Of a DNA stretch of 25,722 nt, positions 5,297-25,722 are shown one piece after another; positions within the stretch are counted from its first letter, which is position 1, and every line of letters begins with the position of its first letter. Under the pieces are notes generated by a model that was given only the letters and a program-made list of their open reading frames with translations, had not been told where the DNA came from and did no database searches. The stretch is from Planctomycetota bacterium (lineage in GTDB: Bacteria; Planctomycetota; UBA11346), in contig JBBQSO010000076.1 of NCBI GenBank assembly GCA_038213805.1, positions 1 through 25,722 on the forward strand. Direction: 5' to 3'. A program made the translations under genes and the position numbers.

Positions 5297-5535
5297 AGGA
5301 CGCGCGAGCTGTAAGTGACGTATGGCGAGCGCTAGGCGGGCTGTCGATCCGCGACGTCCATGTCCTCTGCCGCGTCCTGGTGCGTCGTCGTCCGCGACTC
5401 CCTGACGCCGCGCGGCTTTTGCCGCCATGTCGCGCTACATGCAATTATTTCCTGGAATTACCACGCGCTAACCGGTGAACTCAGCGGGTGCTTCCACACC
5501 CGCGGCAACTGAATGTATTCGGCCCAACGCAGCTC

Positions 5536-7872: not shown

Positions 7873-7879
7873 GATCACC

Positions 7880-9310
7880 ATGCGCAGGAACTGGCTCATC
7901 GACCGCCGCACCGCCCTCATGGGCCTGGGCGTGGCCATCGGCCTGCCGTTGCTCGAGACCATGGGCTGGGCCGATCCGCCGCGCGGTGGCGCCGCGACCC
8001 GGCCGCCGGTGCGCCTCGGCTTCATCAACGTGCCCAATGGCGTGAACCAGGCGCAGTGGTGGCCGAAGGACGAAGCATCGTTCACCCAGAGCGGGCCGCT
8101 GCCGAAGACCCTCGAGCCGCTGCGTCCGTTGCTCGGCGACGTGCTGCTGCTGGGTGGCGTCGACAGCATGCTGGCCATCGATCCGAAGGTCGGCAACGCC
8201 TCGCACGCGCGCGAGGTCAGCACCTGGCTGACCGGCTGCCACATCAAGGAGAAAGCGGTCGAGTGCGCGATCTCCGCCGACCAGGTGGCGGCGCAGCGCG
8301 TCGGCGCCTACACTGCGCTGCCCTCGATCGAACTGGCGCTCAGCCCGCTGCGCGCGGCCGGCGACTGCATGGAGGGCTTCTCCAGCGCATATTTCCACAT
8401 CTCGTGGCGTTCGCCGACCCAGCCGATGCCGGTTGAGGTCGATCCGCGTGCGGTTTACACCCGCCTGTTCGCAGCGCGCACTGCGCGCCCGGCGCGGCGC
8501 GGCGCGGCCCCCGCGCCGTCGCCGGTCGGTGACGGCGCCACCGCGGCGCCGCAGGGACGCTCGCTGGACGAGAGCATGGTCGACTTGGTGTTGGAGCACG
8601 CGCGCGCCATGCGTGGCACGGTTAGCGGCAACGACCGGCGCAAGCTCGACGAGTTCCTTGACAGCGCGCGTTCGCTCGAGACGCGCATCGCGGCGATCGA
8701 GAAGCAGGCGGCCGAGCGCGCGCGCGCCGCCGCCGGGGGCGCGGCGAAAAAGTCCTACAAGACCTCGCCGCTGATCGAGGTGAAGCCACCCGGTGCCATC
8801 CCCGAGCGCCTGGACGAACATGCGCGCATCATGTTCGACCTGGTCACCCTTGCCTTTCAGACCGACACCACGCGCATCTTCAGTCTGGTCATCGACAACG
8901 CCTTTGTGAGCCGCACCTATCCCGAGCTTGGCGTCAGCCAGCACCACGAGCTCTCGCACCATGACAACAACCCGGAGAAGCTCGCGGCGCTCGCCAAGAT
9001 CAACGCCTACCACGTCGAGCAGCTCGCCTACTTCCTGGGCCGCCTCAAGGGTCTGAGCGAGGGCCGCGACAGCCTGCTCGACAACTGCGCGATCCTGTAC
9101 GGCTCGGGCCTGTCGGAAGGATTCACCCACAATCCGCGCAATCTGCCCACCATCGTCGCCGGCCGTGCCGGCGGCAGCATCCGCAGTGGTCGCTTCGTCA
9201 AACAAGCGAAAGGCAACCAGTCCGACCTGCTCATGGGCCTGCTGGCGCGGGCGGGATGCCCGGTGGATGGGTTCGGGGATGGGACGAGGATGCTGGCGGA
9301 TCTGTCGTAG
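7880..9310 (+). CDS. DUF1552 domain protein (usual partner of DUF1592 proteins)
   Basis: Tat-like IDRRTALMGLGVAIGLPLLETM, RLGFINVPNG, ISADQ, LAFQTDTTR, HHELSH, LLDNC.ILYGS and GRAGG motifs. ATG 7880 lies 7 nt after the upstream stop, so the ORF-track start at 7391 is spurious. Confidence 0.92.
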   Translation: MRRNWLIDRRTALMGLGVAIGLPLLETMGWADPPRGGAATRPPVRLGFINVPNGVNQAQWWPKDEASFTQSGPLPKTLEPLRPLLGDVLLLGGVDSMLAIDPKVGNASHAREVSTWLTGCHIKEKAVECAISADQVAAQRVGAYTALPSIELALSPLRAAGDCMEGFSSAYFHISWRSPTQPMPVEVDPRAVYTRLFAARTARPARRGAAPAPSPVGDGATAAPQGRSLDESMVDLVLEHARAMRGTVSGNDRRKLDEFLDSARSLETRIAAIEKQAAERARAAAGGAAKKSYKTSPLIEVKPPGAIPERLDEHARIMFDLVTLAFQTDTTRIFSLVIDNAFVSRTYPELGVSQHHELSHHDNNPEKLAALAKINAYHVEQLAYFLGRLKGLSEGRDSLLDNCAILYGSGLSEGFTHNPRNLPTIVAGRAGGSIRSGRFVKQAKGNQSDLLMGLLARAGCPVDGFGDGTRMLADLS

Positions 9311-9470
9311 GGCCATCCGCCGTACGCATGGCCCCGGGCCATTTCAGACCCGCTCCTTTACGTGCGTTCCTCCCGTGACTCCCTGACTGTCGGGGATCCC
9401 GCCGCCCTGCCCCTTCCCAAGCGCCCCAGCCCCGCTCTCATGCCGGGCCACGCTAGTGAGGGGATCCACC

Positions 9471-12400
9471 ATGGACATGCAACGCGCGCTGGGTCTGAGC
9501 GAGGAGGGGGTCAACCAGGACGGCGACCGCCGCCAGCTGATCCGCTACATCACCCTCAAGCTCGCGGCGCTCGGCCATGAGGTGGTGCCGGCCGAGAGCG
9601 ACCGCGAATTCCTGGCGGTGGCGCGCGACCTGCTCGCCAACCACCGCGAGCAGGGTCGCCTGCTCAGCGAGGTGCTGCCGCCGGCCGATCAGCGCATCCA
9701 GGCCTTCCTCGACCGCCACCTCGCTGGTTGCGGCGACATCCCACGCCTGCCCAAGGACACCTTCATCCTCGACCGCCACGGCCTGGCGCGTGAACTGTCG
9801 CTGCCCGTCGACGGCGACCGCTTCGCGTCCGAGCTGCTGACCTCGTTCCGCACCGCCCAGGGCGTGCTGCACAATCCGCGTTCCGACCGCCGCACCACCC
9901 AGGGAGTGTTCCACATCGCCGAGGGCGGCCTGCCGGTGCCTGCGGACAAGTGCGCGGTGCCCAAGGCGGTGTTCGCCGCGCTGCTGCGTCACGCCCTCAA
10001 ACCGCCGCGCGCGCTGCTGCGCCTGCCCTTCGCCTGCGGAGAGCGCGGCCCAGGCACCGAGCTGACCGTCAGCCTGCTGCTGCGCCCGCTGGTCTGCCCG
10101 GAGGTCCCCGGGGTCAGCGCGCGGGCCACCATGGAGACGCGCTTCTTCGCGCCCGGAGGACTGGTCTCCAACCTCGACTTCGTCGAGTCGGTGTTCGGCA
10201 ACGCCGGCGACCCGACCCTGCCCGAAAACGATGCTGCGCTGGATACCGACCACTGGACCGGCCACACCGGCTGCGTGATCCTGGCGCCGCACCTGACCGC
10301 GCTGACCAAGCGCGACGTCGGCCTGCCGCACGCCGATCAGGCGACCCCGCGTCAGCGCGCCGAGGGCATGTGCTGGCGCGACGAGGGCGAGCGCTACAAC
10401 GGCGGCAACGCTTTCAAGATCACCTGCCGCACCGTCGACGGCGTGGTCGTCACCATCCTCGCCGACAACTACTTCGGCTACTGCAAGAAGGAGGTGAAGA
10501 CCCAGATCGGCTTCGCCGCCAACCGCTTCGGCGCCTGCGAGGAGGAGCATTCCGGCGGCGCCCTGGCCTTCGCCAGCTACACCCTGGGCGAGGTCTTCGC
10601 GGGCGACAACGCAGTGGTGCAGAGCCGCGGCCACACCTTCGCCGAACAACGTGAGCGCTTCGCGGCGCTTATGGACATGCAGAGCGAGGGCCACGGCATC
10701 GACAAGCGCTACCCGGACATCGTCTACGTGCCCGAGGACGTGCGCATCGACCAGCGCGCGCAGACGGTGAGCTGGCAGGGCGCGGCCGGGCGGCAGTCGA
10801 TCCGCCTGCGCCCCGGCTTCGCCTACGTGCACCCGGCCGGCTACAAGGTGCACCTTGAGAAGCACCCTGGTGCGCCGTCGTGGCGGCTGGTCGGCACCGT
10901 CGCCGAGGGCACCTTCTGCCACAAGCCGTGCACGGTCTCGGGCGGCGGCAAGTCGGAGATCGCCAAGTCGCTGGTCGACGCGGTGCTGTACGGGCCGGTG
11001 TTCATCAGCGATCTCGACCACGACCTTGACGCGGTCGCGGCGCTATGCGCGCGCGACTACGGCGACCGCATGCTGCCCGACCAGGCCCACGACTACAGCC
11101 GCCGTCCAAGCCGACCGCTGCTCGACCCGGCGCGCAGCCTGGGGTCGGTGATCAAGCTGTTCACGCCCTCGCCCGGCGAGTTCAGCCCGGCCTATAACGC
11201 GTGGCTGGCGACGGTGCCCAACCATGTGCGCGCGCTGCTCTTCATCATCAAACGCTTCTACCGTCCGGAATGGGGCGGCGATTGGCGCCAGCACTTCAGC
11301 GTCGACATCGTCAACGGCAGCCGCGGGCACGAGTTCAAGTTCGGCGACCGCAAACTGGTCGGCAGCTATCTGCGCGTCGGCCTGCAGGGCGACGGCTCGT
11401 GGCGCACCTTCAAGCTGCGCCAGGACTTCACCGCCGCCTTGAAGGTCCAGATGGAGGACGACATCACCGCTTCGGTGGTGGTGCCCAGCGCGCGTCTGTC
11501 GGGACTCAACCCCGACTACCATGCGCCCAGCGTCAAGCTTGCCGAGAACTGCGAGTCGCGGCTGTTCCAGCGCCCCGACGACGCGATCCACCGCGGCTAT
11601 GACAAGCAGGCCGAGATCGACATGGCCGCGCCCGGGCTGTTCGCCTCGAACTACGAACCGCTCACCGCCGAGGACGCCGTGGCCCTGGTCGACGACGCCA
11701 TGGGCTTCGAGGCTTTCACCGCACCGATGCAGGCGCGCCTGCGTGGCGCGGCGGCGCGCACCGGCGGCTACGTGGTGTCGAGCGCGCACCCGCGCATCGT
11801 CGACGGCAAGCGCACCAAGAATCCGCGCTATCTCCAGGTCAGGCCCGACCTCGTCCACCACCGCGACCGCTGGCTGGCGCTGGTCGGGACGCGTTTCCAC
11901 CGGCGCCTGGGTCCGCAGCAGGCGCTGCACCTGCCGGTCAACGCGGTGCTGGCCGGGCGGCGCAACAATCCGCCGGACGGCGCGATCCGCATGCTCGCGG
12001 TCTACAACCCGATCCACTACCAGGAGCTGCCCGAGCTGTTCATGGACTTCGCGTGCAGCCTGACCGGCAAGTCGCCGTCGACCACCGGCGCAGGCAGCGA
12101 AGGCGCGCTGACCAAGGGTCCGTTCAACATGGTGCGCGCCACCGCCGACCTCAACAACGCCCTGGTCAGCGCCATCCTCACCGGTGCCGACGGCTTCACC
12201 TCTGCGGCCGGGCACATCGGCCCGCACGTCCAGGTCGATCACGACATCAGTCTGCTCATCCCCGAGATCTGGTGCCGCCTCGCGGTCGCCGAGCGCGAGC
12301 CGGCGATGCTCATCCGCAACGGCCACCTGGAACGCATCGCCGACTTCAGCCACGGCGGACGCACGATCCCGGCCAGCCGGCTCGGCTATCGCATCACCTC

Positions 12401-12956
12401 GAAGTTCGTCCACACCTTCTTCGGACGCATTTTCGACACCCCCGCGGCGGTGTTCAACGAGGCCATCCTGCGCCCCGAGACCCAGGACCTGGCGGCCTTC
12501 GTCGCCGGCCTCGACTCCATCGTCGAGGCGCAGCAGCGCGTCGCGCAGAGCTACTTCGACGATGGCAGCATCGACGAGGCCAGCCCGCCGCTCGCCGCCA
12601 TCCTGCACGTCATGGCGCATGGCCACTGGCAGGGCAAGGGCATCGGCGATCCCGCACTACGCGCGCTGTTCACGCGCGAAAATCTGCTCGCCAGCGCCTG
12701 GTACCGCCGCCGCCTGGCAGTGAAGCAGGAACGCGACACCGCGCTGTGGCGGCGCCACGTCGCCGCGCTCGAGGCCTTCCTCGCGCGGCGCAGCCATCAC
12801 GACGAGGCGTGCCGCCTGGATGTGACCGGCCGCCTAGAGCGCGCCCGCGCCCAGCTCGCCGCCGTGCAGGCGCCGGACTATCTGGAGCAGCTGCAGGGGA
12901 CGATCGGGGCGGATCCGATGGGGAAGGGCGAGGCGGCGATGGGGGCGGGGCGGTAG
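9471..12956 (+). CDS. PPi-dependent phosphoenolpyruvate carboxykinase (EC 4.1.1.38)
   Basis: About 1160 aa with GVLHNPRSDRRTTQGVFHIAEGGLP, ADNYFGYCKKEVKTQI, EEEHSGG, CHKPCTVSGGGKSEI, RLFQRPDDAIHRGYD and SLTGKSPSTTGAGSEGALTKGPFN, typical of the Entamoeba/Propionibacterium PPi-PEPCK family. GAGGGG SD precedes ATG 9471. Confidence 0.9.
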   Translation: MDMQRALGLSEEGVNQDGDRRQLIRYITLKLAALGHEVVPAESDREFLAVARDLLANHREQGRLLSEVLPPADQRIQAFLDRHLAGCGDIPRLPKDTFILDRHGLARELSLPVDGDRFASELLTSFRTAQGVLHNPRSDRRTTQGVFHIAEGGLPVPADKCAVPKAVFAALLRHALKPPRALLRLPFACGERGPGTELTVSLLLRPLVCPEVPGVSARATMETRFFAPGGLVSNLDFVESVFGNAGDPTLPENDAALDTDHWTGHTGCVILAPHLTALTKRDVGLPHADQATPRQRAEGMCWRDEGERYNGGNAFKITCRTVDGVVVTILADNYFGYCKKEVKTQIGFAANRFGACEEEHSGGALAFASYTLGEVFAGDNAVVQSRGHTFAEQRERFAALMDMQSEGHGIDKRYPDIVYVPEDVRIDQRAQTVSWQGAAGRQSIRLRPGFAYVHPAGYKVHLEKHPGAPSWRLVGTVAEGTFCHKPCTVSGGGKSEIAKSLVDAVLYGPVFISDLDHDLDAVAALCARDYGDRMLPDQAHDYSRRPSRPLLDPARSLGSVIKLFTPSPGEFSPAYNAWLATVPNHVRALLFIIKRFYRPEWGGDWRQHFSVDIVNGSRGHEFKFGDRKLVGSYLRVGLQGDGSWRTFKLRQDFTAALKVQMEDDITASVVVPSARLSGLNPDYHAPSVKLAENCESRLFQRPDDAIHRGYDKQAEIDMAAPGLFASNYEPLTAEDAVALVDDAMGFEAFTAPMQARLRGAAARTGGYVVSSAHPRIVDGKRTKNPRYLQVRPDLVHHRDRWLALVGTRFHRRLGPQQALHLPVNAVLAGRRNNPPDGAIRMLAVYNPIHYQELPELFMDFACSLTGKSPSTTGAGSEGALTKGPFNMVRATADLNNALVSAILTGADGFTSAAGHIGPHVQVDHDISLLIPEIWCRLAVAEREPAMLIRNGHLERIADFSHGGRTIPASRLGYRITSKFVHTFFGRIFDTPAAVFNEAILRPETQDLAAFVAGLDSIVEAQQRVAQSYFDDGSIDEASPPLAAILHVMAHGHWQGKGIGDPALRALFTRENLLASAWYRRRLAVKQERDTALWRRHVAALEAFLARRSHHDEACRLDVTGRLERARAQLAAVQAPDYLEQLQGTIGADPMGKGEAAMGAGR

Positions 12957-13040
12957 GGGCGCCCCTCGCCGTGACCGGGAGGTTGGGTCGCGGTCGGCGA
13001 AGCCCTGACCGGAGGCGCGGTGCTGCTGCCCGACGCGCGG

Positions 13041-14342
13041 TCAGTTTGCAAACATCAGCGTCACCCCGGCGACGAGCACGGCGCTTGTCACCGTGGCTGA
13101 GTGGTCGACGGATGTTTCCTGGCCGGTTCCGACGTGCTGACCACGACGCACCTGGAGGGCGACATCGTAGGTGAGGAAGCGGGTCACGAGGCTCGCGCCC
13201 AACGAGCCGCCGAAATAGCGGTCGACGTGCGGGTCGACCGGATCGACATTGTCGAGGGCGCTCGTGGCCCGGCTCGGCAGCTCTTCATAGAGCATGCCGA
13301 TCCGGGCTGCGCACAGCGCCTCATCGAACAGGATGATGCGCTCGTAGCCGATGTAGACGTTGTATCCGTCCGGAAGCCGGTGCTGATCGACAAACCGGGA
13401 AATGGGATTGGCGCGGTCCCCGTGTGCTTCTATCCAATAGGCGCTCCACCGTGTCCAGGTGCAGTCGACGGCCACGGTGTCGGCGTCGCTGAGGGTCCAG
13501 GCGCACCCGAGCGTCGCGCTGGGCGGATAGTGCCAACGTCCCTGGCTTGTGTCGGACAGGTTGTCCGAGGCGGTGGGGCCGTCCTGGTCATGCTCGCGGA
13601 CATGTTCAACGGTCTCGATCGCGAGATTGAACGCCGGACGGTAGACGAATGCCAGCGTGAGCTCTGGTGTGGCGCGGAACCATATGCCGGTCACGACGTT
13701 GTTCCCACCCACGCTGCGCGTCTCGAACTCGTCTTCAGTCACGATCCGGATCGGGGTGCCGATGACGCTGCTGTCGGTGGTGCTGATGCTGTGGAAGTGG
13801 CTGGCGTGGGTGTGGGAATTCCGCCAGCTAGCCAGCGTCGCCCCGATCCCCAGGCCCGGAAGGGGCTCGATCGCGTAGCTCAAGCCGATGGAAGCGAAGG
13901 AGCCGTCCTGATTGTTCGAGAATGCGTTGCTTGTGAATTCGTCGCCGAAGGTGAGGCTCGTGGAACGGGTGAAATCGAATTGCCGCTGCCAGAAAAACCC
14001 GATGGTCTGCTGGATCCCCAAGAGGTTTAAGGGTAGCGCAAAATCAAGGTAATCGAGTGAGGCGGTGGTGCTCGTCTGGGACACGAAGCCGGGCGGACTG
14101 GATCGTCGCCAGTACCCACCGCCCGACACGGAGACCTCCGCGGATTCGAGCTGCACCGACCCTCCAGGGTTCCAGGTGATTCCGTTGACGTCATCGTCGA
14201 TAGCGGAGAACGCGCTGATGCCCATGGCGCGCACCCCCGATCCGGCGCGCTGGGCGCCATTCTCCTGGACCGCGAAGGCCAATCCGTGCCCGAGCACGAG
14301 ACCGGCTGCGCAGCGCGCGCAAGCGTTGCCAGTAGAGGTCAT
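13041..14342 (-). CDS. OmpP1/FadL/TodX-like outer-membrane beta-barrel protein
   Basis: Signal peptide ending LAFA, N-terminal plug motif GSGVRAMGISAFSAIDDDVNGITWNPGG, alternating amphipathic beta-strands, WTRWS, and a final strand VLVAGVTLMFAN. Confidence 0.8.
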   Translation of the reverse strand: MTSTGNACARCAAGLVLGHGLAFAVQENGAQRAGSGVRAMGISAFSAIDDDVNGITWNPGGSVQLESAEVSVSGGGYWRRSSPPGFVSQTSTTASLDYLDFALPLNLLGIQQTIGFFWQRQFDFTRSTSLTFGDEFTSNAFSNNQDGSFASIGLSYAIEPLPGLGIGATLASWRNSHTHASHFHSISTTDSSVIGTPIRIVTEDEFETRSVGGNNVVTGIWFRATPELTLAFVYRPAFNLAIETVEHVREHDQDGPTASDNLSDTSQGRWHYPPSATLGCAWTLSDADTVAVDCTWTRWSAYWIEAHGDRANPISRFVDQHRLPDGYNVYIGYERIILFDEALCAARIGMLYEELPSRATSALDNVDPVDPHVDRYFGGSLGASLVTRFLTYDVALQVRRGQHVGTGQETSVDHSATVTSAVLVAGVTLMFAN

Positions 14343-14908
14343 TGGAATGACAGGTCCATCTCCCTGGAGTAGCCATCGCCGGTCGCCTTGATGATCTTCC
14401 CCGAATTGAGAATGCCGCAGGACACGATCAGCTCGTACGACGAGGTCTTCTGCAACGATTGGATGATGACATAGTTGTGATCGCCATCCGGGAGCCGCTC
14501 AAAGGCGACAGGACCCCCATCTGCCAACGCGACGCCGACGTCCTCCAGGGATTTTCCCGGCGGCAGGATGAGGTGTATCAAAATATGACAGGTGTCGTCA
14601 GGCGCTAAGTAGGGGCCGGGCACGTCGGCGTAGAAGGACTTCGCTGGAATCGTTGTGAGGACATCGACAGGAAATTGAGGATCGGTTTTGTTCAGTGTAG
14701 AGTATCCGGGGGCAGTGTCCGACCAAGCGTGAATCTTGTAGTCTCCAGTGTGGGTGATGGAGAAATAAAAATCTGATCCCGAGATGGTCGGGGGATCACG
14801 TCTGTATACGGTGCCGTCGGATCTGAGGATCTCTATGTGGGGATGGGACGGGCTGATGCCCGCCTTGCCGCCAGCGTTATTGTAGAACACGCCGTGCAAA
14901 AGTGTCAT
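14339..14908 (-). CDS. Hypothetical protein, 189 aa, probably two small beta-sandwich domains, no signal peptide
   Basis: AAGGA SD 7 nt upstream, ATGA overlap with the barrel gene, and a non-shadow amino-acid composition. The fold is guessed from strand patterns only. Confidence 0.7.
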   Translation of the reverse strand: MTLLHGVFYNNAGGKAGISPSHPHIEILRSDGTVYRRDPPTISGSDFYFSITHTGDYKIHAWSDTAPGYSTLNKTDPQFPVDVLTTIPAKSFYADVPGPYLAPDDTCHILIHLILPPGKSLEDVGVALADGGPVAFERLPDGDHNYVIIQSLQKTSSYELIVSCGILNSGKIIKATGDGYSREMDLSFQ

Positions 14909-14943
14909 GATCTCGTCCTTGAGGTGCTGGGTGTACTGGTCAT
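14905..14943 (-). CDS. Possible 12-aa mini-ORF MTSTPSTSRTRS bridging two genes
   Basis: Its ATG overlaps the stop of the TPR gene (14943-14940) and its stop overlaps the ATG of the 189-aa gene (14908-14905). Confidence 0.3.
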   Translation of the reverse strand: MTSTPSTSRTRS

Positions 14944-16628
14944 TCGCCGACGGCGTCGACCTGATCGGTGAGTCGTCCGGAGACGACGGAAAGGGGGGCG
15001 ATGTGATCCTCCGGCGCCCCCGCCTCGACGATCGCGGCGACCGTGTGGTCGGAATCGTTCGGGGTGAGCACGGAGAGCCGCACGCCGCGGCGCACGCCGT
15101 CGAGGGTGCCGAGCGCGAGCTGGGCGGTGCCCTGCGCCGTCAGGCAGCGCCCATCCAGCACGGGGAAGTCGCAGCCCAGGCGGTTGGCGAGGGCCGCGAA
15201 CAGCTGGCCGCACGTCCGCTCGTCGGTGGCAGATGCGTACCCGTCGAGGTGGGCGAAGGCGACCCGGGAGTCACGGTGGATCAGGGTCAGGTAGCACTCG
15301 ATGCCGTCGGCTTCGCGGGTGATGATGACCGCGATCAAGTAGCGCGCCTGCTCGTCTGTCACGCGCGACAGCGTGCGCTGGCTGAACCAGCCGGCGCGCC
15401 ACATGGTGGTCTCCTCCAGCGCTGCGACCTGGACGTCGGCGCGCTCGTAGCGGAAGCGGTGCTCGCGCAGCAACGCCTCCTCGCAGCGCATGTCGTCGGC
15501 CTGATCCGGCAGTGTGCCCGGTCCCGACGCGGTCGCCGGCAAAAGCTGGGCGCGCGCGCGTAGCCGCAGATCGCGCGCCGGCGCCGGGCGCAGCTCAACG
15601 GTGGCATTGCGCTGCAGCTCGGCGCCACTGGCCAGCTGCAGGCGGAAGCGCAGTGCGTGACTGCCGGGCGGCCGGCTGACCGCGACCATGCCGGCGAAGC
15701 GCTGGCCGCTCAGCGACTGCGCGGAAACGCGCTCACCGCCCTCTTCGATAACCAGGCCGCGCAGGCCCCCCGCGCTGGCCGCCGTGATGCTGAACCAGGC
15801 GGTGGTGCCGGGCAGAGGATGGCTCGCCGGCGGGCCATCAATGGCGAAGATGTCTGCCTGCGGCAAGGCGATGGGTACTGCGGGCGGGACCACCGGACCC
15901 TGCTCCGGATAGCTGACCAGGGCGGCGGCCATCAGGGTGGCATCGCTGGGGAGGTCGGCGGAGAAGGTGCGGTCTGGCGCGACCGAGATCGCCTGCTGCG
16001 CGCGGCCGGGGGCGATGGCGACCAGCCCGTCGGCGGCGCCGGAGCAGTGCCCCTCGATGTGCAGCTGGGCGATGCCGGCGACGGGTGCGGCGGGCGCCAC
16101 CACCTCCAGCGTGAGCGCGCCGGGCGTCGCCGCCGCGGCCTCCGGCGTCTCCGGCCGGAAATGCCCGTCGTCGATACCGATGACCTGCGGCGCGGGAGGG
16201 GCGTGGAGATGATCGCCGGCGCGCAGCCCGGTGATGCGCTCGAGCAGCGCCACGGCCTTGGCGCTCGGCTCCTGGGTGAGGCTGATGCGCAGTTCTGATT
16301 CGGCCTCGTCCAGGCGCCCCTGCGCGATCAGCACCGCGGCCAGCTCGCGGTGGGCGAAGTAGCACGTGAAGTGCATGCCCCAGGTGCGCGCCATGCGTCG
16401 CTCGCGGCCGCGCAAGCGCAGGGCAATGCGCAGGTCGCGTTCGGCAGCCGCCCAGGCTTGGTGGCGGGCGAATACCAGGGCGCGCTCATCATACTGGTAC
16501 CACCGTCCGCGGAACGGCACCGACATCTCGCCGTAGACCACGCCCTGGTCGCTGACCGTGCGCGTCGCCTGGGCGCTGCAGCCAGTGGCCGCGAGCAGGG
16601 CTACGATGGCCAGCAGCGCGCACCTCAT
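14940..16628 (-). CDS. Lipoprotein with N-terminal TPRs, central Ig-like domains and C-terminal CsgG/HfaB-like plus FlgT-C-like module
   Basis: Lipobox ALLAATG-C; TPR helices (YFAHRELAAVLIAQGRLDEAESELRISL); beta-rich middle; RFRYERADVQVAALEETTM...GIECYLTLIHRDS (CsgG-like) then FPVLDGR...LALGTLDGVRRGVRL (FlgT-C-like). Confidence 0.75.
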   Translation of the reverse strand: MRCALLAIVALLAATGCSAQATRTVSDQGVVYGEMSVPFRGRWYQYDERALVFARHQAWAAAERDLRIALRLRGRERRMARTWGMHFTCYFAHRELAAVLIAQGRLDEAESELRISLTQEPSAKAVALLERITGLRAGDHLHAPPAPQVIGIDDGHFRPETPEAAAATPGALTLEVVAPAAPVAGIAQLHIEGHCSGAADGLVAIAPGRAQQAISVAPDRTFSADLPSDATLMAAALVSYPEQGPVVPPAVPIALPQADIFAIDGPPASHPLPGTTAWFSITAASAGGLRGLVIEEGGERVSAQSLSGQRFAGMVAVSRPPGSHALRFRLQLASGAELQRNATVELRPAPARDLRLRARAQLLPATASGPGTLPDQADDMRCEEALLREHRFRYERADVQVAALEETTMWRAGWFSQRTLSRVTDEQARYLIAVIITREADGIECYLTLIHRDSRVAFAHLDGYASATDERTCGQLFAALANRLGCDFPVLDGRCLTAQGTAQLALGTLDGVRRGVRLSVLTPNDSDHTVAAIVEAGAPEDHIAPLSVVSGRLTDQVDAVGE

Positions 16629-18157
16629 GGCGCGCCCTCGCCGTCGACGGGCACGCGCTCGACGCGCATGCCCACGGCGGCCGTGGCGCTGTCATCCAGG
16701 CGCAGCCGCGCGGTCTCGGTGTGGGCGCGCAGTACCGTGCCCTGCGCGCACGCGTGGTTGTGCGCATCAAGGATCTGCAGGCGGTCGCCCGGCTGCAGGC
16801 CGTGCCAGCTGCCCAGCGACACCTGTAGCGAACCATCCGGCGCGCACGCCAGGATCCGGCCCCGTTCCTCGAGGCGCTGCAGGGTCGAACGCAGCATGGC
16901 TTCGGCTGCGATGCGCACATCCGCGAGCGCCACGAAGCGCGAATCGACCATCTCGCCGGTCTCGACCACGGCCGTGCGCAACTGCACGTGCTGCTGGTCG
17001 GATGCGGCGCCCTGCACCATGACGAAGACTTGGCCGGCGATGAGATTGCCGCGCCTGACTAGGCTCTTCGCGCTGGCGAACCCTTCGTCACCCAGGCGGA
17101 TCTCGCCGAGCATTGGCGCGAGCGGCCGTTCCACCAGCTTGATGCCGATGGACTGCGCGGCCTCGGCGAGATCGGCCGAGAGTCGCGCGGACAGGCCCTT
17201 CCCGACGATGAACAGCGAACGGTAGGGGGTCTGCCACTCCTCGGGCGGTGGCGACGTCCGGGGCATAGCGATGGCCCCGATGCCGACGCCGGACATCGCG
17301 ACCAGGGCGAAGGTCGCGAACCTGCGGGGGGAGCGGGGTGGGCGTTCGAGGGCGAGCAATTCTGCGACCACCGCCGACCCGTCGGCGGGCCGCCGCGATG
17401 GCTCGAGCTCGGTCATCGCCCGCAGCAGCGGCGCGAGGCGGCGCGAGGTGCTGGCCAGCAGCGGTGGTTCGGTGTCGGCGAGGAACTTCCTCTGCCAGCT
17501 GTCCATGGGGCAGCCGGTGAGCATCTGCCAGTAGCACATGCCGAGCGAATAGACGTCGGCCCGGGCGTCAATCGCCTCCCCCGCCGCCTGCTCGGGTGCG
17601 GCGTATTGGGGCGTTCCGTAGTGCCCGCTCTCGAGCCGTGGCGGTTCGAGCAGGGAACGGGCCAGACCGAGATCAGTGATCTTGCTGGTCCCCCTCGGGC
17701 AGACCATGATGTTCGAGGGTTTGATGTCCCTATGCACAATGCCAGCGGCGTGGATTTCAGCGAGGCCCCGGGCCGCATCGAGGAACCAGTTCGCTCCCAG
17801 GGGATTGCGAGGCTCCTGCCGGTGCTCGGCGAACTGCTGCCAGGTGTATGCGAGCAGCTCGATGATCAGATACGGGTGACCGTGCGCCTCATCGATATGG
17901 AGGGTCTTGGCGATGTGCGGATGGTCACGCAATCTCATGCCGATCGACGCCTCACGGTGGAATCGTTCCCGCGGCAGATCTGGGTGCAGGATCTTGATCG
18001 CGACATCGACGCCCAGATCTCGGTAATTACCTCTGAAAACAACGCTCATACCACCACTGCCGAGACGCTCGGTGACGGTCACGCGGCCGAAGGGGAGGCC
18101 AGGAGTTATCCAGGCCCACGCGGAGTCATCACTCATTTGGTGCCTGGCAACTGACAT
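16625..18157 (-). CDS. Membrane-anchored Hanks-type Ser/Thr protein kinase with periplasmic CsgG-like plus FlgT-C-like module
   Basis: LGSGGMSVV, VAIK, HRDIKPSN, DLG, GTPQYAAPE and DVYSLG; TM segment FATFALVAMSGVGIGAIAM; then IKLVERPLAPMLGEIRLG...GNLIAG...AVVETGE and VSLGSWHGLQPGDRL. The start may be 18136. Confidence 0.9.
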   Translation of the reverse strand: MSVARHQMSDDSAWAWITPGLPFGRVTVTERLGSGGMSVVFRGNYRDLGVDVAIKILHPDLPRERFHREASIGMRLRDHPHIAKTLHIDEAHGHPYLIIELLAYTWQQFAEHRQEPRNPLGANWFLDAARGLAEIHAAGIVHRDIKPSNIMVCPRGTSKITDLGLARSLLEPPRLESGHYGTPQYAAPEQAAGEAIDARADVYSLGMCYWQMLTGCPMDSWQRKFLADTEPPLLASTSRRLAPLLRAMTELEPSRRPADGSAVVAELLALERPPRSPRRFATFALVAMSGVGIGAIAMPRTSPPPEEWQTPYRSLFIVGKGLSARLSADLAEAAQSIGIKLVERPLAPMLGEIRLGDEGFASAKSLVRRGNLIAGQVFVMVQGAASDQQHVQLRTAVVETGEMVDSRFVALADVRIAAEAMLRSTLQRLEERGRILACAPDGSLQVSLGSWHGLQPGDRLQILDAHNHACAQGTVLRAHTETARLRLDDSATAAVGMRVERVPVDGEGAP

Positions 18158-18172
18158 GAGGAGATAGAGGCA

Positions 18173-18199
18173 TGGACCATGAAAGCAAATTTAAATTCC
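18173..18199 (-). promoter_or_regulatory. Putative ECF-type promoter (GGAATT-N16-GTCCA) for the kinase operon, overlapped by palindrome AATTTAAATT (18188-18197)
   Basis: Spacing and motifs resemble the generic ECF GGAAC-N16/17-GTC consensus; located 15 nt upstream of ATG 18157. Confidence 0.3.
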
Positions 18200-18322
18200 G
18201 CGTAGAAGCGTATCGGCACGAAACAACATACGCGCACCGGCCTCGCACACCGGCAGTAGCAGGAAACTGCCGCTCGCTCAGTGGCTTTTCCGTATAGGGT
18301 TTCGCAACTCGGAGCAGCCGCC

Positions 18323-19195
18323 ATGAGCTTCTTTCCCGACCGGCCGCGCACTTTGCGCGAGGCGACGACCATGCTGAGCAGGTTCGCCGATCGTCGGGAT
18401 TGGATCGAGAGCCGCTGGTATTATTTTGAGCCGATTTGCCATTCGCTCGAGGCCCGAGGGGTGGGCGGTGAGAAAGCCCATGACCTAGCCATGGATCTCA
18501 TGCTGAAACTCGATTCGGTGATGCAGCAATATGATCCATCGCGCGGTCGCTTCAGGCCCTACCTTAGCAGGGTCCTCGCCAATCACTATGTCGACGCGCT
18601 CCGCATCGCGGGTCGACGCCCGCTCATATCGTTGGCGGAGGCACACGAGTGCGAGTCCGCCGATCAGCGTGCGGCCATCGATGAAGAGGTGGAGAGTGCC
18701 GCAATGCTCCACTATATCCGCATGGCTTATTACCATTTCGAGGTGCAGGCGCTCGCCGGGACATCGGGTGGGCGGAACCTCGCCCGCCCGTTGCGCGTCC
18801 TCCACCTGCTGCTTATGGAGCGGCGGAGCCAGCAGGAGATCATGGGAGAGCTGCAGATCTCAGAGCGGCAGGTGCGGGTCGACGCCAGCGCGGCTGCCGA
18901 TGCGCTGTCCGGCTGGATCAGGAAGTGGGTTACTGACGATGACCTGTTGGATGTCTCGGATTTTGCGAGACGCAAGGGCATCCAAGTGGAATTCAGTCTC
19001 ACAGGGATCGACGGCCTGTTCCGGCACCTCAGCGATCAGAAAGTCGCGAGCATCCACTTGTTACTTGTGGTCGCTTCGCGCAAGCCTGGCGCGCGGCCGG
19101 CAGGGACCGTATGTGACGGCGCAGGCATCGGTTTCCCGTTGCGTGGCGGCCAGACCATGATCGCTGAGCCGGGCCGGATCAGGAATCTTGCCTAG
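18323..19195 (+). CDS. ECF (sigma-70 family) sigma factor with C-terminal extension
   Basis: GGAG SD 8 nt before ATG 18323. Sigma2: YFEPI...AHDLAMDLMLKL...YDPSRGRFRPYLSRVLANHYVD. Sigma4 HTH: RSQQEIMGELQISERQVR. About 90 further residues follow. Confidence 0.82.
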   Translation: MSFFPDRPRTLREATTMLSRFADRRDWIESRWYYFEPICHSLEARGVGGEKAHDLAMDLMLKLDSVMQQYDPSRGRFRPYLSRVLANHYVDALRIAGRRPLISLAEAHECESADQRAAIDEEVESAAMLHYIRMAYYHFEVQALAGTSGGRNLARPLRVLHLLLMERRSQQEIMGELQISERQVRVDASAAADALSGWIRKWVTDDDLLDVSDFARRKGIQVEFSLTGIDGLFRHLSDQKVASIHLLLVVASRKPGARPAGTVCDGAGIGFPLRGGQTMIAEPGRIRNLA

Positions 19196-19392
19196 GACCC
19201 TGTACGGACGGTTTGCGATACTGATTACCGTGTGGCGACTCGGCCCGAGGATTTCATCGACGCGAGTGCCCTGCTATCAGCGGAAGCGTGGGGTTCCCTG
19301 CCGAAGGCGGATGGTCATCGGCGTCCTGGGCGTCGCAGGCGAGTCTGGTCCAGTCGATCGGGTTCCCTCACCCTCCCGTCCGGGAGGCTGGA

Positions 19393-19429
19393 GTTCCGCG
19401 ACGCCCTCACGAGGAGGGCGTCGCGGAAC
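19393..19429. terminator. Perfect 16-bp hairpin between convergent sigma and caspase genes
   Basis: GTTCCGCGACGCCCTC-ACGAG-GAGGGCGTCGCGGAAC, 21 nt past the caspase stop; no strong U-tract. Confidence 0.6.
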
Positions 19430-19450
19430 GGTTTGTCAGACCCGGAAAAT

Positions 19451-20878
19451 TCAGCTCAATCTGGGATAGACGGTCGTGCCATCATAGAGGTAGGCGGTGC
19501 CCTTGGCACAGTCGTAGGTGGCGTTGTGGTTGGTAGTGACAATGTGAATGAGATTTCCACGGGCCGTCAGCTGGACTACCTGTTTGGGGGCGACGTTGCG
19601 TTCCTCGTATCTGACCCAGCGCACGGCGTCCTTCTCATCAAAGGTCAGGACATGGACCCAGTCGTCCGTATCGTTGTACCAGGTGACGAAACCTTCGGCG
19701 GGATGCAGCAGGAATTCGAAACTCTGAATGATCTTCGATGCCTCCTCGGTGATGACCTTGATGGCGAAGCTTACCAGTCCGTCGGTCACAACATCCCTGC
19801 TCTTTGCGCTCGTGGCCTTCTTGCCTGCGCGCAAGCGGCAGATCTCCTTCAGCCTCGGGACAAGGGCGGAAGGTTTGCCGTCCGGCGACTGGCTGTCCTC
19901 CACCAGGCCGCGGATGATCTGATGTTCGAGGTCCTTCTGGGCGAATGCCAGATTCTGATCTTCGAGGGTATTCATGATGGCTCCTTGCAGATTTGGGGCG
20001 GAATGAGTTACCGCCCCGGGTTGGAGAGACGGATCGCGAGCGAGTTCGCTGAAAGTGGTAGAAAGGGCAAAGGGCAGTCCGCTCAGGGACCGGTTCGCGA
20101 CTAGTTGCGAGTTCTGCGCATAGCCGGCCTTGCGGATGGCTTCGGCCAGTCGCGCATGCAGATGGGAAATGTCCGACGAGGCGTTCGCATCGAGTTCCTG
20201 CAGGAGGAAATAGGACAGCACACCGTGGTATCCACCGTCGATGAAATCGTCGGCAGAGACCTCATCGGATCTACATCCGGAAATGAGCGCTAAGTTCAAG
20301 GCGCTCGTTACGTCAGGTAGCGAGCCCATCGCCAGGCCTTTGTGCCTGGCCGTGGAAAGCCGCCATTGCAGGTCCATCGGCATATGGAAGGTCCGGGCCT
20401 TGAACTGACGGGAGCGGGCGCTCGCGGCGCCCATATCCCTGGTCACCAACTGGCCCGAGTGGCACGAGTCGGAGATCCAGTAGAACCGGACTCCGTCAGG
20501 CAGCGTCGAAAAAAGCTCATTGAAATGCTCGTCCACCAATGCGTGCTCCACAGTGAAGTCGAAATCGATTGGGCAGATGCAGTCGTGGACCTTTTCGACC
20601 TCGCCATCCGGCGAGCGCAGCGGCAGGAGGGCGCCATGACCACTGAAGTGGAATATGAGGCGATCTTCCGGAGCAGCGTCGCAGACAAGCCAGCGCAGCC
20701 TCTCTCTGATCGCTTGCGCGGTCGCTCTGGCGTCGACGAGGAGGCGGATGTTTGCATCCTGGAATCCCGCCTTTTCAACCAGGAAGCGTGCCATTCCTTG
20801 GACGTCGTTTAGGCAGCCTTGGAGTTCATTGGGGTACGCATACGAGTTGATGCCGACTAGGAGCGCTTTATCTGCCAT
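19451..20878 (-). CDS. Caspase-family protease (peptidase C14, orthocaspase/metacaspase-like) with unknown C-terminal domain
   Basis: KALLVGINSY, LQGCLNDV, ATAQAI, FHFSGHG (His codon 20638-20636), ISDSCHSG (Cys codon 20464-20462), LISGCRSDEVS and HGVLSYFL; GAGGA SD before ATG 20878. Confidence 0.93.
   Translation of the reverse strand: MADKALLVGINSYAYPNELQGCLNDVQGMARFLVEKAGFQDANIRLLVDARATAQAIRERLRWLVCDAAPEDRLIFHFSGHGALLPLRSPDGEVEKVHDCICPIDFDFTVEHALVDEHFNELFSTLPDGVRFYWISDSCHSGQLVTRDMGAASARSRQFKARTFHMPMDLQWRLSTARHKGLAMGSLPDVTSALNLALISGCRSDEVSADDFIDGGYHGVLSYFLLQELDANASSDISHLHARLAEAIRKAGYAQNSQLVANRSLSGLPFALSTTFSELARDPSLQPGAVTHSAPNLQGAIMNTLEDQNLAFAQKDLEHQIIRGLVEDSQSPDGKPSALVPRLKEICRLRAGKKATSAKSRDVVTDGLVSFAIKVITEEASKIIQSFEFLLHPAEGFVTWYNDTDDWVHVLTFDEKDAVRWVRYEERNVAPKQVVQLTARGNLIHIVTTNHNATYDCAKGTAYLYDGTTVYPRLS
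19973..19986 (-). promoter_or_regulatory. Internal in-frame ribosome-binding site and start (AAGGAG-N5-ATG) defining a nested 174-aa product, 19975-19451
   Basis: Minus strand GCAAGGAGCCATCATGAATACC, located just after the caspase domain and a low-complexity linker. Confidence 0.6.
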
Positions 20879-20961
20879 GACAGTCTTCCTCAACGTATAA
20901 GTGGTTGGATTCGCGGGCCTTCCTGAGCCGCCTTCAGGGGAAGGCGGTGCCCGTTGCGCAC

Positions 20962-20967
20962 ATTATA
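20962..20967 (-). promoter_or_regulatory. Consensus -10 box TATAAT upstream of the caspase gene
   Basis: Perfect TATAAT about 83 nt upstream of the ATG in GC-rich DNA; no convincing -35. Confidence 0.45.
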
Positions 20968-21155
20968 CGTAGGAGTCTAACGAATCCGGCAGTCGGCAGT
21001 GGGTGTTTGCCCGGAGCGCGTTCTGGTGCGCCTCATCGGCTTCGGATGTAATCGAGAATAGGCTTCACCAAGCGACGTTGGCGGCAGCACCGGCTGATGC
21101 AGATGCCGCGCCGCTCGATCTCAAATGAATCCACCGCTACCTGCCAGAGTGACGT

Positions 21156-24100
21156 TCAGAGCCACACCTCGACATGGTGCTCCTTGCCATCATCGACCAG
21201 CGGGATCGCATGGTCCGGCACGTCCTGCCCGTCTACGCGCGTCGCCTGCGCGCCGCGCGCGACGGTGATGATGTAGGTGGCGGCGCCGTGGCGCCAGGTG
21301 CAGGTGAAGCCGTCCATGTCCTTGGCCAGGCAGGGTGTCACCAGCAACCGGTCGCCGTTTTTGCGTAGGCCGAAGAGTTCTTCAATGAGCAGGCGGTACA
21401 TCCAGCCGGCGGAGCCGGTGTACCAGGTCCAACCGCTGCGGCCGGTGTGCGGGGGGACGCCGTAGACGTCGGCGGCGATGACGTAGGGCTCGGCCTTGCT
21501 GGTCGCCAGGCGCTCGGCGTCGCCGCCGCGGCGCACCGGGTCGAGCAGGCGGGTGATCTCCCACGCGCGCTCGGCGTCGCCGAGGCGGGCGAAGGCCATC
21601 GCCACCCACACCGCGGCGTGGGTGTACTGGCCGCCGTTCTCGCGCACCCCGGGCGGGTAGCCGCGGATGTAGCCGGGGTCGAGCGGAGTGTGGTCGAAGG
21701 GCGGGTCGAAGAGCTGCACCAGTCCACGGCCGCGGCGCACCAGCTGCCGATCGACCGCGTCCATGGCGGCGCGCGCGCGCCCGGGTTCGCCCGCGCCGCT
21801 CAGCACCGCCCAGCTTTGCGGCAGCGAGTCGATGCGGCATTCGCTGTTCTCGGCGGCGCCGATCGCCGCGCCCTCGTCAGTGAAGGCGCGCAGGTACCAG
21901 CGTCCGTCCCAGGCGTGCGTCTCGGCGGCCTGGACCATGGCCGCCGCATCCGCGCGCAGTTCGGCGGCGACCGCCTGGTCGCCGCGGCGCTGTGCCAGCT
22001 CGGCGAGGCGCACCAGCACCTCATGCTGGAAGAATGCCAGCCACACGCTCTCGCCGCGGCCCTTGTGGCCGATGCGGTCGAAGCCGTCGTTCCAGTCGCA
22101 GCCGCCGATCAGCGGCAGGCCGTGTGCGCCGCGCCCGCGCGCGTGGCGCACCGCGCGCAGGCAGTGCTCGTAGAGCGACGCCGGTTCGCCGATGCCGGGC
22201 AGCTCATAGAGGTCGCCGTCCTCGAGGCGCGGGATGCGCCCGGTCAGGAACGGCACCTGTTCGTCGAGCAGCCCCATGTCGCCGCTGCACTCGACGTAGC
22301 GCGCCACCGCCAGCGGCAGCCACAGCAGGTCGTCGCTGCAGTGGGTGCGCACGCCGCGCCCGGCCGGCGGGTGCCACCAGTGCTGCACGTCACCTTCGGT
22401 GAACTGGCGGCCGGCGGCGCGCAGGATCTGCTCGCGCAGCAGGTGCGGGGCCTGGGCGCCGACCGCCATGGCGTCCTGGAGCTGGTCGCGGAAGCCGTAG
22501 GCGCCGCCAGACTGCGAGAAGCCGCTGCGCCCCCACAGCCGGCTGGCCAGCACCTGGTAGAGCAGCCAGCCGTTGGCGAGCAGGTCGAGGGCCGGGTCGC
22601 GGCTGGCGATGCGCACGCCGCCGAGCAGCCGCCGCCAGTGCGCGCCGACCGCCGCGAGTTCGGCGCGGGCCGCGTCGGGATCGCGCCAGCGCGTCGCCAG
22701 GGTGCGCGCCTCGGTGGCATCGGCGCCGCAGCCGAGCACGAACACCACCTCGCGTTCCTGGCCAGGCGCGAGTTCGCAGGGCACCTGGATGGCCAGGCAC
22801 GGGTCGAGGCAGGCGCCGACGCGCCCGCCGAGCCGGGTGCGCGCCAGGGCGTCGGGACTGCTCCACTGGCCGTTGCGGCCGAGGAACTCGCCGCGATCCG
22901 CGGTGACGGTGCGCAGGCGCACGCTGGCGTCGAGGAAGGCCACGCGCCCGGCGAAGTCGGCGCTGTAGGGGTTGCGCGCGGTGAGCGTGCCGCTGGCGCG
23001 GTCGACCGCGCTGATCACGTGCATCGCGCCGCGCTGGCGCAGTTCGCCCAGCGCCAGCTCGCAGCAGGCGGTCAGCGCCAGGCGCCGCACCCGGTTCGAA
23101 TGGTTGGTGATGCGCAGCACCAGGAAGCGCACCGGCGCTTCGACCGCGACGAAGGTGGTCAGCTCGCTCTCGAGGCCGTCGTAGGCGGTGGCGAAGCGGC
23201 TGTAGCCGAAGCCGTGGCGCACCACGTAGCGCGCCGGCGCGCGCGCCGGCCACGGGCACGGTGACCAGAAGCGACCGCTGTCCTCGTCGCGCACATAAAC
23301 GGCCTCGCCGGAGGCGTCGGTGGTGGCGTCGCCGTGCCACGGGGTGAGGCGGAATTCGTGGCTGTTCTCGGCCCAGGTGTAGCCTGCACCGCTTGCCGAA
23401 ACCACCGCGCCGAAGCGCGGGTTGGCGAGCACGTTGACCCATGGCAGCGGCGTGGTGCGCCCTGGTTCCAGGACGATGGCGTACTCCTCGCCGCCGGGCA
23501 GGAAGCCGCCCAGGCCGTTGGCGAAGGCGAGGTCCGCCGGCACGGCGACAGGCGCGGACGGTTCCGCGCGCAGCCCGACGCGCGCGGGTTCCAGGCGGTC
23601 GACCGGGCGCTCTGGGCGCGGCCGGCGCTCCGCCACCGCCTGCAGCGAGCCGGCGGTGTCGGTGATCACCAGCCGCGCCGCGGCCTGCAGCAGCACGCGG
23701 TCCTCATCGGGCATCAGTTCGCTGCGGCGCACGAACACGCCGCCCGGACGGTCGACCAGGCCGGCCGCGGGACCGGCGGCGACCAGGCCCATGAGCTGGT
23801 CGTGGAGCGTGGCGCGATAGCCCGAGACGTCCTCGTTCCAGATCACCAGATCGACCTGCAGGCCCATGGCGCGCCACCACGCATGCGCGGCGAGCACCTC
23901 GCGCACCAGATCGAGGCGCGCGGCATCGCTGATGCGCAGCAACGTGATCGGCAGGTCGCCGGAGATGCCGTGCGCCCACAACCCGGACTGGGAGCGGCGC
24001 CCGAGCGCGACCACGCCGGCGGGCGCACGGCGGAAGGAAGTGGCCATGACCAGGGCGCCGGCCAGGCGCGCCGCGGCCTGGGCCTGGGCTTCGCTGAGGC

Positions 24101-25721: not shown

Positions 25722-25722
25722 G

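Follow-up and report, generated by a model that had tools for sequence, protein, structure and literature searches.

A kinase, lipoprotein and FadL-family barrel cassette in Planctomycetota: a candidate trans-envelope signalling device with a lineage-specific sigma factor

The locus described here raises the question of which genes in a compact six-gene block belong together, and what the unit that they form may do. It lies in a window of 25,722 nucleotides (the whole stretch of DNA that was analysed), contig C76 (JBBQSO010000076.1) of a Planctomycetota metagenome-assembled genome (MAG) of 5.5 Mb and 90% completeness. The block encodes a Hanks-type Ser/Thr kinase, a lipoprotein, a 189-aa protein, a FadL-like barrel, a sigma factor resembling those of the extracytoplasmic function (ECF) type and a C14 orthocaspase. 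A preliminary description made from the window alone had proposed that all six constitute one system relaying a surface signal to transcription and proteolysis. The listing of open reading frames (ORFs) and Pfam agree with it on the identity and position of the six genes. The real unit is smaller, namely, a three-gene trans-envelope cassette comprising an inner-membrane (IM) Hanks kinase, an outer-membrane (OM) lipoprotein and a FadL-family barrel.

The three cassette genes are encoded on the minus strand. The kinase gene (16625-18157, 510 aa) overlaps the lipoprotein gene (14940-16628, 562 aa) by 4 nt, and the gene of the putative FadL/TodX-family OM beta-barrel (13041-14342, 433 aa) follows after the 189-aa ORF. 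The window proteins were compared by tblastn with 14 loci and with 21 genome_contigs loci, the latter all from Planctomycetota-type MAGs, and the order kinase, lipoprotein, barrel, often with overlapping stops and starts, was found to recur across divergent Planctomycetota (about 25 loci). Removal of near-duplicates left 27 kinase-type cassettes including the window, a set that still includes one near-identical pair, L052 and L053, and one pair of orthologues, L013 and L032. The barrel gene adjoins the lipoprotein gene in 17 of the 20 kinase-type loci that extend at least 1.5 kb beyond the latter, while the genes flanking the cassette vary between loci. Among 41 related genomes, 12 encode relatives of the lipoprotein, and every one of these belongs to the family of the window's genome (11/24 there, 0/16 in other families). 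Gene-neighbourhood analysis, which the preliminary description had suggested as a check, therefore upholds the linkage of the barrel and, within one lineage, that of the sigma factor, but not that of the caspase or the 189-aa ORF, for which the counts are given below.

The domain structure of the lipoprotein was derived from two family alignments and an AlphaFold model (pLDDT 76.9). Behind a lipobox with Cys17, which is invariant in the broad alignment, the protein consists of a TPR-like helical head (residues 43-136), two Ig-like sandwiches (173-347), an alpha/beta domain resembling those of FlgT, TolB-N, LpoB and CsgG (359-487), and a beta-barrel (492-561). The motif RMARTWGMHF.CYFAHREL, to which attention had been drawn previously, is present and represents the most conserved stretch of the lipoprotein family; it is located in the TPR-like head, together with most invariant residues. 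The best Foldseek matches of the model are the LPHT ring (8z5n, E 1.7e-8) and FlgT (3w1e, E 8.4e-8), with TolB (7mx5) and PelC (5t0z) ranking lower. The label CsgG, which had been given to both the lipoprotein and the kinase, is justified in part: neither window protein matches Pfam CsgG (PF03783) at E<=0.01, whereas a partial match occurs in 10 of 16 sampled lipoprotein relatives, alongside partial matches to LpoB and FlgO, and the fold itself (FlgT, TolB, PelC) agrees with it. The lipoprotein shares only the periplasmic alpha/beta fold with CsgG. Its identification as a CsgG channel was rejected, since the relatives cover only about positions 7-105 of the 210-position profile and csg genes are lacking.

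The kinase contains a cytoplasmic catalytic domain (residues 27-258; Pfam Pkinase 121.4 bits, cut-off 31.7, E 5.8e-35), in which the catalytic residues are kept (among 18 relatives K55, H142, N149 and D162 do not vary, and D144 hardly does), and a single transmembrane (TM) helix (280-298). The periplasmic part that follows (about 323-493) is a paralogue of the C-terminal module of the lipoprotein. Comparison of the two families by hhalign gives a probability of 96.9% (E 1.8e-10, 171 columns) and, in line with this, the profiles of the kinase C-domain and the lipoprotein C-module match each other. Structure prediction for lipoprotein residues 20-562 with kinase residues 300-510 yielded an ipSAE of 0.70, the best of three controls being 0.00. 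This mark is attained by 116 of 157 solved complexes and by 2 of 215 mismatched pairs, counts which are only roughly valid here because the run used the alignments of the present analysis. At least 63% of contacts recur between runs, partner pLDDT is at least 74, and the predicted interface (lipoprotein 354-426, kinase 372-408) joins the paralogous alpha/beta domains. The pairwise modelling that had been recommended thus favours this pair, and the lipoprotein is predicted to bind the periplasmic domain of the kinase.

The barrel protein has an N-terminal signal-like segment. Its Toluene_X match (21 bits) is below the Pfam cut-off of 29.7, which is exceeded by the orthologues in L033 (53.8 bits), L027 (40.6), L030 (37.6) and L028 (30.5), as well as by barrels of the broader family (47.9-75.2 bits). 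A match to BamG (35 bits) falls far below the cut-off of 250, and this assignment was rejected. The genes for barrel, lipoprotein and kinase occur together as a cassette, and the topology of their products fits the earlier proposal of one component for each layer of the envelope. In one clade of cassettes without a sigma gene, the barrel gene is followed by one for a protein about 1000 aa long that contains an Ig-like domain, Big_12 (L028:5501-8620, L030:7883-10807, L035, L036, L038 and L058); these proteins are 50-90% identical across the six loci, and the window's genome contains only distant matches, located elsewhere.

The lipoprotein belongs to a much wider family, whose profile retrieves 2077 proteins (E<=0.001) from a set of 1.84 billion representatives. 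Most of these are about 680 aa long and share with the window lipoprotein its TPR head, its Ig domains and its C-terminal module. Among 80 metagenome loci, a kinase-type partner is encoded in 14. The other 63 broad-family loci, many on short contigs, include a barrel in 34, a cyclase-CHAT protein in 27, an ECF sigma factor in 20 and an anti-sigma factor in 17; in the 12 that are well flanked, these numbers are 10, 10, 6 and 6, respectively. The cyclase-CHAT proteins consist of cytoplasmic Guanylate_cyc and CHAT domains, a TM helix, and then, outside, TPR and FlgT/LpoB-like domains. A single TM helix was identified in six of the seven proteins checked, and in that of L112 none was found at the expected position. 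The accompanying zf-HC2 anti-sigma factor has no TM helix. In L069 (2466-4373, plus strand) a TIR-TM-TPR-FlgT/LpoB-like protein is encoded directly before the family lipoprotein and barrel, the sole example in the 80 metagenome loci. In L034:9195-13026, from a Planctomycetota MAG with 46% GC, the partner is a 263-aa protein with a TM helix and the periplasmic domain but without a cytoplasmic enzyme, and lipoprotein and barrel genes come next. The periplasmic pairing module is therefore constant, and the cytoplasmic output is interchangeable. No other observation speaks as strongly for a signalling device, as opposed to a transporter, and we read the lipoprotein-barrel pair as a modular trans-envelope sensor.

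In 3 of the 16 sampled lipoprotein relatives a Peptidase_C14 domain is inserted. These proteins of about 1000 aa (P0103, P0121 and P0161), one of which is named as Desulfococcaceae, carry the domain after the Ig domains and ahead of the C-terminal module, which makes them a periplasmic form of caspase.

The sigma gene is divergent from the kinase gene. Its longest ORF starts at GTG 18281, but the true start is likely to be TTG 18353, giving a protein of about 280 aa (18353-19195, plus strand); the distance to the kinase gene is accordingly 124-195 nt, and the intergenic region, as read directly for the later start, spans 18158-18352. The ten members of the sigma family align from a conserved start, which is ATG in eight, TTG 18353 in the window and ATC in L059, so that the start of the L059 copy is uncertain. 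Pfam Sigma70_r2 matches with 27.2 bits (cut-off 24) and TIGR02937 with 39.8 bits (cut-off 42.9), and no Pfam match to region 4 was found in the window sigma. The model (pLDDT 69.8) shows the sigma2 helices and a sigma4-like helix-turn-helix, and its best fold matches are the ECF sigma factors AlgU, SigH and sigmaE, all weak (E 0.056-0.25, none <=0.001). Two features of the family are the N-terminal motif M-D-x-A-S-T, with Ala4 and Thr6 invariant (n=10), and, at the C-terminus, a conserved extension of about 50-60 aa that is predicted to be helical (pLDDT about 80-90). Neither the ORFs scanned in the window nor those scanned beside the other kinase-type sigma genes gave a match to an anti-sigma domain.

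The preliminary description had counted the sigma factor as part of the system. A dedicated sigma family is linked to one cassette lineage but is not universal: of the 22 cassettes with at least 1.5 kb of sequence before the kinase gene, 8 have a member of it. Although the window's genome encodes 72 kinase domains, it has exactly two kinase C-domains of the cassette type, and likewise exactly two each of the lipoproteins, barrels and sigma factors of these families; each of the two sigma genes adjoins a cassette. On the kinase tree, which is a quick search tree, the sigma label needs 3 changes compared with 7.1 in shuffles, and none of 500 shuffles is as low. The sigma-linked cassettes all lie outside two well-supported sigma-less clades; in four of the sigma-less rows the upstream DNA is too short to judge. 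In L059 the genes for barrel, sigma factor, kinase and lipoprotein are all on one strand, the sigma and kinase ORFs overlap by 4 nt, and the barrel gene ends about 30 nt before the sigma gene. The link between sigma factor and cassette is thus lineage-specific and not obligatory. Among the 41 relatives, five genomes have lipoprotein and sigma factor, seven the lipoprotein alone, two the sigma factor alone and 27 neither, sigma matches being counted at E 5.6e-84 or better.

Two side observations concern the sigma family. Genome G024, of the same family as the window's, has no lipoprotein match but encodes 12 weaker paralogues of the sigma factor (E 4e-20 to 8e-11), which may represent an expansion of a related sigma group. 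In the same-genus genome G003 (C3:112395-113250), a cassette-adjacent sigma gene is split over two frames (matches to residues 16-183 and 180-285), which is a frameshift or an assembly error.

On the whole, we lean towards the reading that the three-gene cassette signals OM events through the kinase and, in the window's lineage, onward to the co-encoded sigma factor. The lipoprotein would be anchored under the OM beside the barrel, and its C-terminal module would pair with the periplasmic domain of the kinase. A change at the OM could then alter this pairing and switch the kinase; candidate triggers are the entry of a hydrophobic ligand via the FadL-like barrel and a disturbance of the barrel-lipoprotein complex by damage or contact. 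In the window's lineage the kinase would act on the sigma factor, most likely by phosphorylating Thr6 or by relieving the C-terminal extension, and transcription would change as a result.

Several observations weigh against this reading. Part of the score of the predicted complex may come from resemblance to solved ring assemblies with the same fold (FlgT, PelC and CsgG). The second barrel of the window's genome is encoded by itself on contig C20, and lone copies of the sigma gene also exist, for example in L138, where flanks of about 7-8 kb on each side contain no cassette gene. Fourteen of the 22 cassettes are without the sigma gene, and no sigma match was found in the seven lipoprotein-positive related genomes mentioned above, which are 78-94% complete. 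The kinase and the sigma factor of the window are the most divergent members of their families, the kinase having a branch length of 2.1 on the quick tree, and the organism is uncultured. Upstream of the ten sigma genes no shared promoter motif was found, the best two-block motif occurring in 4 of 10 compared with 3-5 in shuffles. Finally, the acidic sigma2.2 segment is retained: the family consensus is D-x-D-D-L-T-H-E, and the window sequence, K-A-H-D-L-A-M-D, keeps two of the acidic positions. ECF43 has lost the acidic DAED of sigma2.2 and has a conserved Thr there instead, with the consensus QTTA (PMC8999054, PMC13147305). Because the present family keeps its acidic residues, the ECF43 mechanism, in which phospho-threonine substitutes for the lost charge, is not directly transferable, and classification of the sigma factor as ECF43-type, with Thr in place of the acidic motif, was rejected.

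An alternative that appears unlikely is that the cassette is chiefly a device for envelope transport or assembly, either for hydrophobic uptake or as a FlgT/PelC/CsgG-like scaffold for export or surface structures, in which the kinase tunes the process and the sigma factor is not its substrate. Such a role would suit FadL-family barrels, which carry hydrophobic substrates according to family knowledge and the Pfam description, and a lipoprotein whose fold matches the ring scaffolds of machines (LPHT ring/FlgT, PelC); the secreted, Ig-rich protein of about 1000 aa after the barrel in one clade and the absence of the sigma factor from many cassettes would also be accommodated. What speaks against it is the nature of the IM partner, which is always a single-pass protein with a cytoplasmic signalling or effector enzyme (kinase, cyclase-CHAT or TIR) and never a transporter or ATPase, and the ECF/anti-sigma pair within the operon in half of the 12 well-flanked broader loci. 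Nor do the planctomycete cassettes have conserved neighbours of the cargo, usher, ABC or polysaccharide kind.

It is slightly less likely still that the cassette is a sensor for which the sigma factor is merely a frequent neighbour, with the substrates of the kinase elsewhere and the sigma factor governed by its own C-terminal extension. The many cassettes with no sigma gene nearby and the lone copy in L138 are in line with this, as are the preserved sigma2.2 motif and an extension resembling those of self-regulated groups of the ECF41/42 type (PMC8999054). The arrangement in the window's own genome is difficult to reconcile with mere proximity, since both sigma copies adjoin its only two cassettes among 72 kinases; the sigma-linked kinases, although about 30-35% identical, also group together on the tree, and the one-strand arrangement of L059 and the lack of anti-sigma domains beside the kinase-type sigma genes point the same way.

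The sixth gene, encoding the C14 orthocaspase (19451-20893, minus strand), is convergent with the sigma gene and forms its own transcription unit. Peptidase_C14 covers residues 9-266 (Pfam 92.7 bits, cut-off 21.4), and the protein contains FSGHG and DSCHSG, which we take to be the motifs of the caspase His/Cys dyad. The C-terminal half of about 200 aa has neither a Pfam family nor an Atlas match, and no signal peptide or TM helix was found, indicating a cytoplasmic protein. The C14 profile has no match in the 101 related loci outside the window, tblastn with the window caspase finds none in 35 related loci, and there is no match in ten same-genus genomes or in the other 11 lipoprotein-positive genomes; the genomes of the same taxonomic family give just two weak matches, to the caspase domain only. 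The closest relatives are stand-alone caspases, about 265-290 aa in length, and the named ones among them are labelled Fibrobacteria, Bacteroidetes, Cytophagales or Chitinophagaceae; three proteins of about 470 aa match over the full length with 36-37% identity. The membership of the caspase, which the preliminary description had itself called its least certain part, is therefore not maintained.

The 189-aa ORF (14339-14908, minus strand), between the lipoprotein and barrel genes, begins 31 nt after the former and overlaps the latter by 4 nt. Its place in the system could not be upheld either, as it is an orphan, matched only by itself among 5.8 billion clusters, and tblastn detects it in none of the 35 related loci. 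The ORF at the same position in L063 was considered as a counterpart and rejected (no similarity, E 7). Because the GC content at third codon positions is 0.70 in frame, compared with 0.43-0.53 in three of the five other frames, it is probably a real low-GC gene, whose composition looks foreign, like that of the caspase gene. A stretch of 42 residues resembles the C-terminal domain of a broader-family anti-sigma factor (E 8e-4 in a single comparison, the profile giving just 3.3 bits), and an Atlas match to a CarboxypepD_reg-like beta-sandwich has a score of 0.90 with only 141 shared features; both are leads only. CarboxypepD_reg proteins also occur in the contexts of ECF54 and ECF57 (PMC7826278). 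The caspase and the 189-aa ORF are best read as later, locus-specific, low-GC additions outside the conserved cassette.

Under the six-gene proposal, surface sensing would lead to sigma-dependent transcription and caspase proteolysis in a defence-like system, on the model of the caspase/sigma modules in type III CRISPR loci. Adjacency of the genes and the intact His/Cys pair are compatible with it, as is the occurrence in the wider family of sensors joined to caspase-fold proteases (cyclase-CHAT in 10 of the 12 well-flanked loci, C14 inserts in 3 of 16 lipoproteins) and of one partner protein with TIR. The NCBIfam type of EACC1-associated caspases matches weakly (38.7 bits, cut-off 140), and PADLOC-DB 2.0, searched as had been advised, contributes one generic caspase model. 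The remaining PADLOC hits are kinase-domain models (PD-T4-6, mad6 and others), there is no system-level match, and the barrel, lipoprotein, 189-aa ORF and sigma factor match no PADLOC family. The analogy with CRISPR-associated caspases and sigma factors that accompanied the proposal survives as a theme of the wider family, through cyclase-CHAT proteins encoded with ECF and anti-sigma factors, but not through the C14 gene. Given that the caspase has no match in the other loci, the same-genus genomes or the other lipoprotein-positive genomes, has its named nearest relatives in other phyla, lies in a separate transcription unit with a GC content of 0.584 and lacks the signal peptide or TM helix that would liken it to the fused periplasmic caspases, and that neither a CRISPR array nor cas genes were found in the window, the six-gene version is largely refuted as a conserved system and is highly improbable.

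Trans-envelope signalling with an OM sensor and an IM transducer is known from the Rcs system, where the lipoprotein RcsF acts with OM proteins and IgaA, and from FecA-FecR-FecI. Like these, the cassette combines an OM barrel with a lipoprotein or sensor, a single-pass IM partner across the periplasm and an output in transcription. Its parts are unrelated to theirs, the barrel being of the FadL type and not a TonB-dependent transducer or porin, and the lipoprotein a FlgT-like multidomain protein. The coupling would use paralogous domains on both partners, and the output is a Hanks kinase instead of a phosphorelay or proteolysis of an anti-sigma factor. With FlgT of the Vibrio flagellar H-ring, PelC, the TolB N-domain, LpoB and CsgG the lipoprotein shares the periplasmic alpha/beta fold; unlike in the FlgT, PelC and CsgG systems, the neighbourhood is free of flagellar, Pel or curli genes, and a TPR-like head and Ig domains are added.

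Control of a sigma factor by a CHAT protease is reportedly found in Craspase (Csx29/Csx30/CASP-sigma). A link between a CHAT protease and an ECF sigma factor is also described for DdvA/DdvS of Myxococcus xanthus, where DdvA is a periplasmic TPR-CHAT protein (PMC11506125), and the context of ECF54 includes a CHAT-TPR protein with a CarboxypepD_reg protein (PMC7826278). The broader family resembles these systems in that the kinase is exchanged for a CHAT protein encoded with an ECF sigma factor and a zf-HC2 anti-sigma factor. The window differs in having neither CHAT nor anti-sigma factor, and the CHAT domains of its relatives are cytoplasmic and fused to a cyclase, whereas that of DdvA is periplasmic; compared with Craspase and the type III modules, the window also lacks an array, a Cas effector and a TPR-CHAT protease.

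Phosphorylation of ECF sigma factors by co-encoded Hanks kinases is described for EcfP/PknT of Vibrio parahaemolyticus and EcfK/PknS of Xanthomonas citri (PMC8999054, PMC13147305). For the planctomycetal kinase-linked groups ECF59, ECF61 and ECF62 the kinases are TPR-fused, WD40-fused or multi-pass, and envelope partners are not mentioned in the part of PMC7826278 available. The window shares with ECF43 and these groups a single-pass kinase beside an ECF-type sigma factor, the lack of an anti-sigma gene and a conserved Ser/Thr in the sigma factor. Unlike ECF43, its sigma family keeps the acidic sigma2.2 segment and adds the N-terminal Thr motif and the C-terminal extension. By their descriptions, ECF43, ECF59, ECF61 and ECF62 also differ in the sensor, which is FlgT/LpoB-like in the window kinase and TPR, WD40 or multi-pass in theirs, and in the lipoprotein and barrel partners of the window kinase. 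In the accessible portion of the supplement of PMC7826278, CsgG, LpoB and Guanylate_cyc do not occur, FadL occurs under ECF28 only and a CHAT domain under ECF54 only. No description of the module, as combinations of CHAT, ECF and FadL or of cyclase with CsgG or TolB-like domains, was found in the literature searched, and the cassette core is an undescribed variant of trans-envelope signalling.

For the kinase-linked ECF sigma factors, which are abundant in Planctomycetes, the known descriptions, as far as their available text goes, give outer domains of the kinases but no partners (PMC7826278, PMC13147305). The cassette offers a concrete candidate route, from barrel and lipoprotein through the pairing of paralogous domains to the kinase and to a dedicated sigma factor with an invariant Thr. 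The occurrence of the same sensor with CHAT, cyclase and TIR suggests a general plug-in architecture by which OM events could be connected to diverse cytoplasmic responses, and which is relevant to envelope stress and bacterial immunity. A speculative extension, which we regard as doubtful, is that barrel and lipoprotein are the outer half of a trans-envelope sensor, widespread but undescribed, whose IM adaptor carries kinase plus sigma factor, cyclase-CHAT plus ECF/anti-sigma factors or TIR, and which could serve as a front end for immune-like or stress effectors, reporting contact with phages or predators or damage to the OM before the cytoplasm is reached; the caspase of the window might then have been recruited as an extra output.

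The composition of the block agrees with the earlier remark that its GC content is lower in part. The lipoprotein gene (0.726) and the C-terminal half of the kinase gene (0.707) are host-like, the flanks and the lipoprotein gene having values of 0.70-0.74, while the N-terminal half of the kinase gene (0.650), the barrel (0.637), sigma (0.618) and caspase (0.584) genes and the 189-aa ORF (0.554) lie below this range. The block is thus a mosaic in GC content. No tRNA adjoins it, and no convincing direct repeats bound the low-GC genes; a 25-nt direct repeat with 80% identity (19486-19510 and 20936-20960) near both ends of the caspase gene may be due to chance. As had been stated, the locus is without CRISPR: no CRISPR-like array was found in the window, and no cas or CHAT family among its 17 ORFs scanned with Pfam. 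Scanning of 12800-21300 for sigma-70 promoters and terminators gave counts at the level of chance, and the intergenic region between the kinase and sigma genes has no sigma-70-like site above chance.

The genes flanking the block belong to ordinary metabolism. On one side, a plus-strand ORF of 1166 aa (9456-12956) encodes a pyrophosphate-dependent phosphoenolpyruvate carboxykinase, which phmmer matches over nearly the full length to PDB 6k31 (AiPEPCK) and 8e1u (E=0), although it has no Pfam, NCBIfam or PADLOC family. It is preceded by a DUF1592/DUF1552 pair (5488-9310, plus strand), the counterpart of which adjoins the kinase cassette in L040:4178-7800 with 45% identity; the presence of the pair near two cassettes is probably leftover synteny. 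On the other side, a large GH94-type enzyme with glycoamylase, supersandwich and GH94 catalytic domains (21156-25722, minus strand) runs past the end of the window.

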